Source: Ostrea edulis | Lineage: Eukaryota | Length of the DNA: 64,000 nt | Assembly (NCBI RefSeq): GCF_947568905.1 | Contig: NC_079166.1 | Location: 89,590,001-89,654,000 of the forward strand | Direction of reading: 5' to 3' | Shown: in pieces, positions 11,952 to 12,480 of the stretch | Layout: each line of letters opens with the position of its first letter | Numbering within the stretch: position 1 is the stretch's first letter | Notes under the pieces: generated by a model | Databases searched by the model: none | Told to the model about the DNA's origin: nothing | Seen by the model: only the letters and a program-made list of their open reading frames with translations | Translations under genes and position numbers: made by a program

Positions 11952-12480
11952 AAGTAATTCGTTACTAGCTTGAAAGTATAGATGTATATTTAATTGCTGG
12001 GATAAAATTTAGACATTCATTTCAAAATTAAGGAGTATCTCCCTCATGCATAGCTCTGATCCTTAGACGAATTGGATTCCAGTCTTTGGCACTCTAATTT
12101 TCCTTTTAGTTCTTACAAGTTTATTGTGATTTCGGATTTCCAAAATTCCGGTTTGAGCATCACTGAAGAGACATTATTTGTCGAAATGCGCATCTGGTGC
12201 ATCAAAATTGGTACCGTATAAATTTTGCATTACCACCCTTGGGTCGAGGCCTCTGCTGGTGTACTGTTAGTCCCCGGGGTCTCTACAGCCCAGTAGCTAA
12301 GTACTTTGTTACTAGCTTCAAAGTACGGATGTATGTTTAATTGTTGTGATAAAATTTAGAAATTCATTTCAAAATTAAGGATGATTTTCCAAAGTTTCAG
12401 CTTGAACATCACTGAAGAGACATTATTTGTCGAAATGCGCACCTGGTGCATCAAAATGGGTACTGTATAAGTTTTACATT
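11952..12480 (+). mobile_element. Retrozyme-like repeat, head-to-tail partial dimer with two hammerhead motifs
   Basis: A 5'-truncated unit is followed directly by a second, internally deleted unit. Hammerhead motifs lie at 12157 (intact) and 12406 (cleavage triplet AUC changed to ACC). Confidence 0.85.
12157..12200 (+). ncRNA. Minimal type I hammerhead ribozyme
   Basis: GCATCA-CTGAAGA-GACA ttatt TGTC-GAAA-TGCGCA-TC/TGGTGC: CUGANGA and GAAA core, 4-bp stem II, palindromic stem III, AUC cleavage site, stem I GCAUCA:UGGUGC. Confidence 0.85.

Follow-up and report, generated by a model that had tools for sequence, protein, structure and literature searches.

The hammerhead motif at 12157–12200 of the 64,000-nt stretch of Ostrea edulis DNA analysed here (the window) lies within a non-coding retrozyme of about 351 nt, which is probably copied into new sites by the Naiad-type Penelope-like element (PLE) of the same genome. 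Naiad as the partner is held with greater confidence than the full model of how copying would proceed. The repeat is a non-LTR retrozyme of the kind known from mussel and, as a retrozyme, is ordinary; what is added to the first-pass annotation of this DNA is a fixed 3′ end, a hairpin shared with Naiad and an insertion hotspot in Naiad's tail. From the hairpin, its register and the hotspot, we infer that the repeat is mobilised by the Naiad protein, as a non-autonomous Naiad derivative would be.

The hammerhead motif and its copies

The first-pass annotation listed seven copies of a motif that it read as a minimal type I hammerhead. All seven were recovered (Table 1), and exactly three of them, at 12157, 16484 and 25959, are intact as claimed, with CUGANGA, GAAA, an AUC site, a 6-bp stem I, a 4-bp stem II and a palindromic stem III. 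In the copy at 12157–12200 the core reads CUGAAGA, the loop of stem II has 5 nt, and cleavage is predicted after base 12194. The other copies carry a U16.1-to-C change in the cleavage triplet (12406), damage in the core and stem II (17788), mismatches in stems I and II (27991), or damage in stems I–III and at the cleavage site (43642). The copies at 12157 and 12406 belong to two units of a single insertion, which brings the number of insertions in the window to six.

Table 1. Retrozyme and Naiad features of the window
Feature	Position	Strand	Details
Retrozyme insertion, about 1.5 units	11947–12480	+	5′ truncation near unit position +101; about 100 nt lost from second unit; ends at +36
Intact type I hammerhead, predicted	12157–12200	+	stem I 12157–62 with 12195–200; core 12163–69; stem II 12170–82; GAAA 12183–86; stem III 12186–93
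Naiad-type hairpin, decayed copy	12239–12296	+	core with one substitution and one deletion; folding no better than shuffles
Second hammerhead of the 11947–12480 insertion	12406–12449	+	cleavage triplet damaged
Retrozyme, slightly over one unit	16453–16831	−	intact hammerhead 16484–16527; hairpin near 16735–16793; ends at +36
5′-truncated retrozyme copy	17644–17859	+	damaged hammerhead 17788–17831; ends at about +34
Decayed Naiad RT fragment	17958–19086	−	used as query to find intact genomic Naiad copies
Naiad 3′ fragment split by a retrozyme	25882–26594	−	26594–26219 is Naiad 2898–3272; 25929–25882 is Naiad 3267–3314
5′-truncated retrozyme copy	25929–26218	−	intact hammerhead 25959–26002; at hotspot of Naiad 3′ end; 6-bp duplication
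One full retrozyme unit, about +28 to +36	27707–28064	+	hairpin near 27724–27782; mismatched hammerhead 27991–28034
Retrozyme copy	43612–43800	−	damaged hammerhead 43642–43685; ends at +36; 5′ part enters N

A type I descriptor matched three times in the 64-kb window, whereas 200 windows simulated with a second-order Markov model contained no match. The Rfam search for Hammerhead_1, which had been suggested as a check, returned no match for the copies of the window or of locus L014; a homologous repeat on a metagenome contig (L183) scored 33.3 bits, just below the gathering score of 34. The motif also folds no better than its shuffles (z −0.69). Since there is no Rfam match and the folding energy is unremarkable, the assignment rests on the core, the stems and the relatives. 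All type I features are present in 42 of 95 hammerheads from a sample of 83 insertions described below. Stems I, II and III differ among three sequence families and yet still pair, as read by eye without a formal covariation count, and copies differ less from one another in the hammerhead than in mid-unit (0.03 versus 0.06). The reading of the motif as a type I hammerhead, predicted to cleave itself, is supported.

The description of the motif as "minimal" is not established. Minimal hammerheads of the PLE type usually lack stem III (PMC7761336), and an absent or reduced stem III is contradicted here by two pairs closed with a palindromic tetraloop, the form described for the stem III of invertebrate retrozymes (PMC7229834). 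A mussel retrozyme clone is reported to have cleaved itself as a single copy at about 0.1 per min (PMC7229834). For the 8-nt palindrome, a duplex was computed at −10.5 kcal/mol, versus +4.7 for the lone stem III hairpin, and it is possible that the hammerhead acts as a dimer.

A Naiad element supplies the window's other abundant repeat, 15 fragments of its 3′ part. A Naiad 3′ fragment at 56382–57189 (+) differs from an intact Naiad by 74 A-to-G changes, clustered at 56400–56900, and by at most four of any other kind; it resembles an RNA hyper-edited by ADAR and then inserted after reverse transcription. A BEL/Pao-type LTR element occupies 19197–25543 (−), with a 1446-aa frame carrying Peptidase_A17, and is probably young because its 633-bp direct repeats (19197–19829 and 24911–25543) are 99% identical. 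Long B-box/NHL (TRIM-like) frames lie at 13358–14848 (−), 10473–11138 (−) and 47089–48708 (+); the first two share 72% DNA identity, and the frame at 10473 has no Pfam match. Sequences resembling tRNA, possibly SINE heads, were found with Rfam at 50373–50445 (+; 34.1 bits) and in L014 at 1684–1756 (51.1 bits). Near-perfect inverted repeats of about 90 nt at 40348–40440 and 63511–63608, with weak microRNA-precursor scores on both strands, are probably MITE-like.

A family of dispersed retrozyme copies

The proposal of a non-LTR retrozyme family of about 350 nt was supported by the anatomy of the copies and by homology to a mussel-type repeat. The unit is about 351 nt long, has 39% GC and is non-coding; measured from site to site, it spans 348–353 nt in seven of eight tandem pairs, the remaining pair representing a deleted unit of 174 nt. 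Exact matches to the ribozyme 37-mer number 6,574 in the 895-Mb genome, and those to a 20-mer of the retrozyme 3′ end number 10,144, 2,122 of which run exactly into a next unit. The copy number of the repeat is at least 10,000.

The insertion sample comprised 83 insertions from the window and 70 loci chosen by exact family motifs. One hammerhead is present in 57 insertions, two to four in 17 and none in 9, and copies are on average 95% identical to the majority base. They are dispersed, mostly solitary and 5′-truncated, and also form short tandem arrays with up to four hammerheads. Rare variants are common to the units of one array (16 in 20 arrays; 6 of 7 arrays in a further set), a pattern that would fit repeated passes round one circle and that local duplication explains too. 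Target-site duplications of at least 4 nt were found at 27 of 77 sampled insertions, not clearly more than under a permutation null with a mean of 18.8 and a maximum of 30; insertions at the Naiad-tail site described below range from small deletions to 6-bp duplications.

Homologous repeats of 332–355 nt with three different hammerhead sequences occur on metagenome contigs. The L183 repeat is 69% identical to the unit over 327 columns, and its hammerhead, compared by eye, closely resembles the published mussel one (PMC4918200, Additional file 11). The retrozyme unit is also present in contigs from three RNA-labelled runs (two studies), where its end is joined to its start; since such joints occur in a genomic-looking run of unrecorded kind as well, the RNA contigs cannot separate circles from tandem DNA.

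A fixed 3′ end

With numbering from the predicted cleavage site, BLAST extension places the end of 78 of the 83 sampled insertions between +35 and +46. The element letters at +35 and +36 are kept in 75 and 74 of these 78, and agreement beyond them drops towards background, while the 5′ ends are spread across the unit. All six insertions of the window stop at +34 to +36. In a ribozyme-anchored check, 30 of 30 loci extend to about +34, most of these loci having been picked by a 37-mer that ends at +3. Among six incidental copies (one of them the window's 17644 copy), four end at +36 to +43. Similarity in five foreign two-unit repeats stops just before the hairpin in three and continues in two.

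Termination of copies at the cleavage site itself was rejected: of 99 copies in which a base past the site is altered, only 3 depart from the element there. Nor were 5′ ends over-represented at the cleavage site when rows were sorted by eye: about 35 true ends were counted in 51 rows at +1 (after removal of 13 internal changes and 3 duplicates), compared with about 17–19 at +6 in the first 100 rows out of 334. The end is thus fixed and lies past the cleavage site, and reverse transcription therefore appears to start at a fixed internal site and to read through the cleavage junction.

The Naiad element and the shared hairpin

In two genomic Naiad copies (L126 and L127), an open frame of 1028 aa encodes GIY-YIG at the N-terminus and an RT domain at the C-terminus. 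In L127 these match GIY-YIG at aa 159–248 (E 1.7e-4) and RVT_1 at aa 772–879 (E 6e-4), both below the Pfam cut-offs, and the CxC and DKA motifs of Naiad were seen in the translation. Each full-length copy is directly preceded by another 3′ end of the element, forming a partial tandem with a pLTR. The last 30 nt of Naiad 3′ ends (e.g., L061–L069) are often tandemly duplicated, sometimes in long arrays, and match the 30–40-nt "tail" of PLEs. CUGANGA does not occur on the sense strand of the resident Naiad, and Rfam finds no hammerhead in the element; a scrambled hammerhead was ruled out in so far as it would show CUGANGA on the sense strand and GAAA in the 3′ region, neither of which is present.

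A 29-nt block is common to Naiad and the retrozyme (26 of 29 matches, E 2e-6, score 43 versus at most 33 in 200 shuffles). It begins 21 bases past Naiad's own 3′-end junction and 22 bases past the retrozyme 3′ end, and the same hairpin of about 60 nt is predicted for both elements (z −2.4 and −2.9 versus shuffles). In an alignment of 22 sequences, consisting of 5 Naiads and 17 retrozyme-like or unclassified sequences, 92% of hairpin cells are paired, compared with 34–48% in slid controls. Nine pairs changed on both sides, against 4.8 in shuffles, 1 of 500 of which reached that number; the invariance of nine pairs was imposed by the search pattern. With RNAalifold only the apical portion emerged, together with a different 3′ stem, and an Rfam search of the window and Naiad returned no family for the hairpin.

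The metagenome scan for the hairpin yielded 46 loci, from which 24 GC-rich loci without similarity outside the pattern were dropped and two AT-rich loci truncated on the 5′ side were omitted from the alignment, L218 being left unclassified. Four metagenome loci carry the hairpin on Naiads, and in the metagenome repeats three distinct hammerhead sequences lie 81–94 nt upstream of it. Read by eye, the mussel retrozyme in Additional file 11 of PMC4918200 carries the same hairpin. The outer stem of the hairpin is closer to two foreign Naiads (L184 and L192) than to the resident one. The hairpin loci examined that are not of retrozyme type belong nearly all to the resident Naiad family, with a few 5′-cut ones unclassified.

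Two further kinds of hairpin locus were observed. At L218, an AT-rich metagenome locus, a diverged hairpin (1961–2054, −) has no hammerhead, Naiad frame or retrozyme similarity nearby and may mark a further passenger family. In short rearranged Naiad pieces (L160–L162, L233 and L234) the junction and hairpin recur, with three occurrences inside 500 bp of L160; such pieces are possible hammerhead-free mini-Naiads.

An insertion hotspot in Naiad's tail

At least 122 exact junctions join the retrozyme 3′ end to one site located 47 nt before the Naiad 3′ end, and 15,183 exact Naiad-tail sites are empty. The site is used roughly a thousandfold over a random position, a figure good to an order of magnitude only since the patterns differ in length. 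The 30 hotspot insertions examined all differ in length, by which a single composite Naiad-retrozyme family was rejected; upstream of them, Naiad is collinear in 23, rearranged in 2 and absent in 5. Among 100 Naiad-tail junctions listed, 83 lie at the main site and 11 at a site 17 nt downstream. Microhomology was rejected as the cause of the hotspot: none of these 100 listed junctions falls at a site 9 nt away that offers longer microhomology. Junctions of Naiad on Naiad reverse the proportions, with 52 of 68 collapsed rows at the downstream site and 6 at the retrozyme's main site; some of them may be local duplications. A preferred nick in the Naiad tail or a template switch of the Naiad RT would both explain the hotspot.

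Proposed mobilisation and its alternatives

In the mechanism that we favour, tandem copies of the retrozyme would be transcribed, cut to monomers and ligated to circles, by analogy with the mussel homologue. The Naiad protein would bind the hairpin of the retrozyme RNA and nick AT-rich DNA, often in Naiad's own tail, and reverse transcription would initiate internally at +35/36 and proceed backwards through the cleavage junction. From a cut linear monomer only a 36-nt stub could be made; since that length is surpassed by most copies, some of which span more than three units, the template would have to be a circle, which is the preferred candidate, or an uncut tandem transcript.

The uncut transcript is the basis of an alternative that we consider unlikely, in which Naiad mobilises the repeat without circles as intermediates and the hammerhead is either a passenger or active at a different step. 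Precedent for it comes from the Poseidon PLE, where hammerhead cleavage is reported to be unnecessary: hammerhead mutants left insertion unaffected, and unprocessed RNA was the main substrate (PMC11167929). Naiad itself, devoid of a sense-strand CUGANGA, nearly always has its 5′ region preceded by its own 3′ end in the same manner, fewer than half of the sampled hammerheads are intact (42 of 95), and the joints in the RNA contigs, which also fit tandem DNA, lend circles no support. Against this, a hammerhead with changed but paired stems has been kept in three families at a fixed distance from the hairpin and varies about half as much as the middle of the unit, and the mussel homologue is reported to make abundant circles (PMC7229834). 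The rare variants shared within arrays also fit repeated copying of one unit, although local duplication would produce them as well.

Considerably less probable is an account in which another PLE or a LINE copies the retrozyme, and the shared hairpin is a signal of a general kind or a relic passed down by inheritance. Frog retrozymes resemble the pLTRs of other PLEs (bioRxiv 10.64898/2026.07.22.740005), Naiad and the retrozyme use the Naiad-tail sites in different proportions, and the comparison covered Naiad alone among the PLE families of the genome. However, a relic would not be expected to retain its pairing through double changes, nor to have stayed at this distance from both 3′ ends; hairpin loci outside retrozymes are nearly all Naiad, apart from the few 5′-cut unclassified ones, and the hotspot lies within Naiad itself. 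Finally, it is very improbable that the repeat is satellite-like, spread by DNA-level duplication and bearing a hammerhead-like motif by chance, for although short tandems, variants shared within arrays and the lack of an Rfam hammerhead match agree with that description, it is largely refuted by the end geometry (one end fixed, the others scattered, and a single hammerhead in 57 of 83 insertions), and the motif is absent from all 200 simulated windows and retains its stem pairing across families.

Relation to known retrozymes and PLEs

Mobilisation by Naiad, the reading preferred here, can be set beside several known systems. The non-LTR retrozyme of Mytilus galloprovincialis is alike in its AT-rich units of about 350 nt, its one type I hammerhead per unit, its short palindromic stem III and its thousands of copies (PMC7229834). 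It differs in hammerhead sequence, and the oyster copies are mostly solitary and truncated; moreover, cleavage and circles were demonstrated for the mussel element (PMC7229834), whereas those of the oyster element are proposed from sequence. The mussel accounts, in the portions available to us, give no fixed 3′ end or named partner (PMC7229834; PMC4918200), and a 2020 review states that retrozyme repeats show no conserved motif pointing to a partner (PMC7761336).

The proposed partner has the layout of the described Naiad PLEs (PMC8557442), and the retrozyme shares with this partner the 5′ hairpin, the end geometry, the 5′ truncation and the partial tandems. Unlike Naiads, the retrozyme is non-coding and carries a hammerhead in canonical order. 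Naiads are reported to lack one (PMC8557442), and the shared feature is therefore the hairpin and not the ribozyme. The words "hairpin" and "stem-loop" do not occur in the accessible parts of the Naiad description (PMC8557442).

The Poseidon PLE of Anolis is similar in that its RT starts inside the RNA, downstream of the hammerhead, requires RNA beyond the start and preferentially nicks AT-rich DNA (PMC11167929). It is an autonomous element of another clade whose activity was shown in vitro, whereas the start proposed here is deduced from genomic ends. Retrozymes of Xenopus likewise have sequence in common with PLE ends, and PLE enzymes have been proposed to act on them (bioRxiv 10.64898/2026.07.22.740005). 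In contrast to the present work, the available text of that study focuses on vertebrates, includes no mollusc, detects Naiad only in a coral and describes no shared RNA structure, start site or hotspot. A literature search, which was not exhaustive, found no paper that ties retrozymes to Naiad by a shared structure.

Implications

The identity of the enzyme that spreads animal retrozymes, and the way in which it recognises them, have been open questions since the 2020 review (PMC7761336). For the oyster family, a candidate partner, an RNA signal and a start nucleotide can be read from the genome. Because signal and start are readable and an intact Naiad frame is present, mobilisation should be testable by the published in vitro assay.

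More tentatively, and with somewhat less confidence than would make it probable, bivalve retrozymes may be circular-RNA parasites of Naiad in which a hammerhead has been fused to an RT-loading hairpin. Since the Naiad RT would start 36 nt inside the cut RNA, circularisation would rescue the monomer, turning a dead end into an endless template. The geometry thereby offers a concrete reason for the circularisation of retrozyme RNAs. If this is true, the hairpin would serve as a transferable tag by which a telomerase-related RT could insert a circular RNA.
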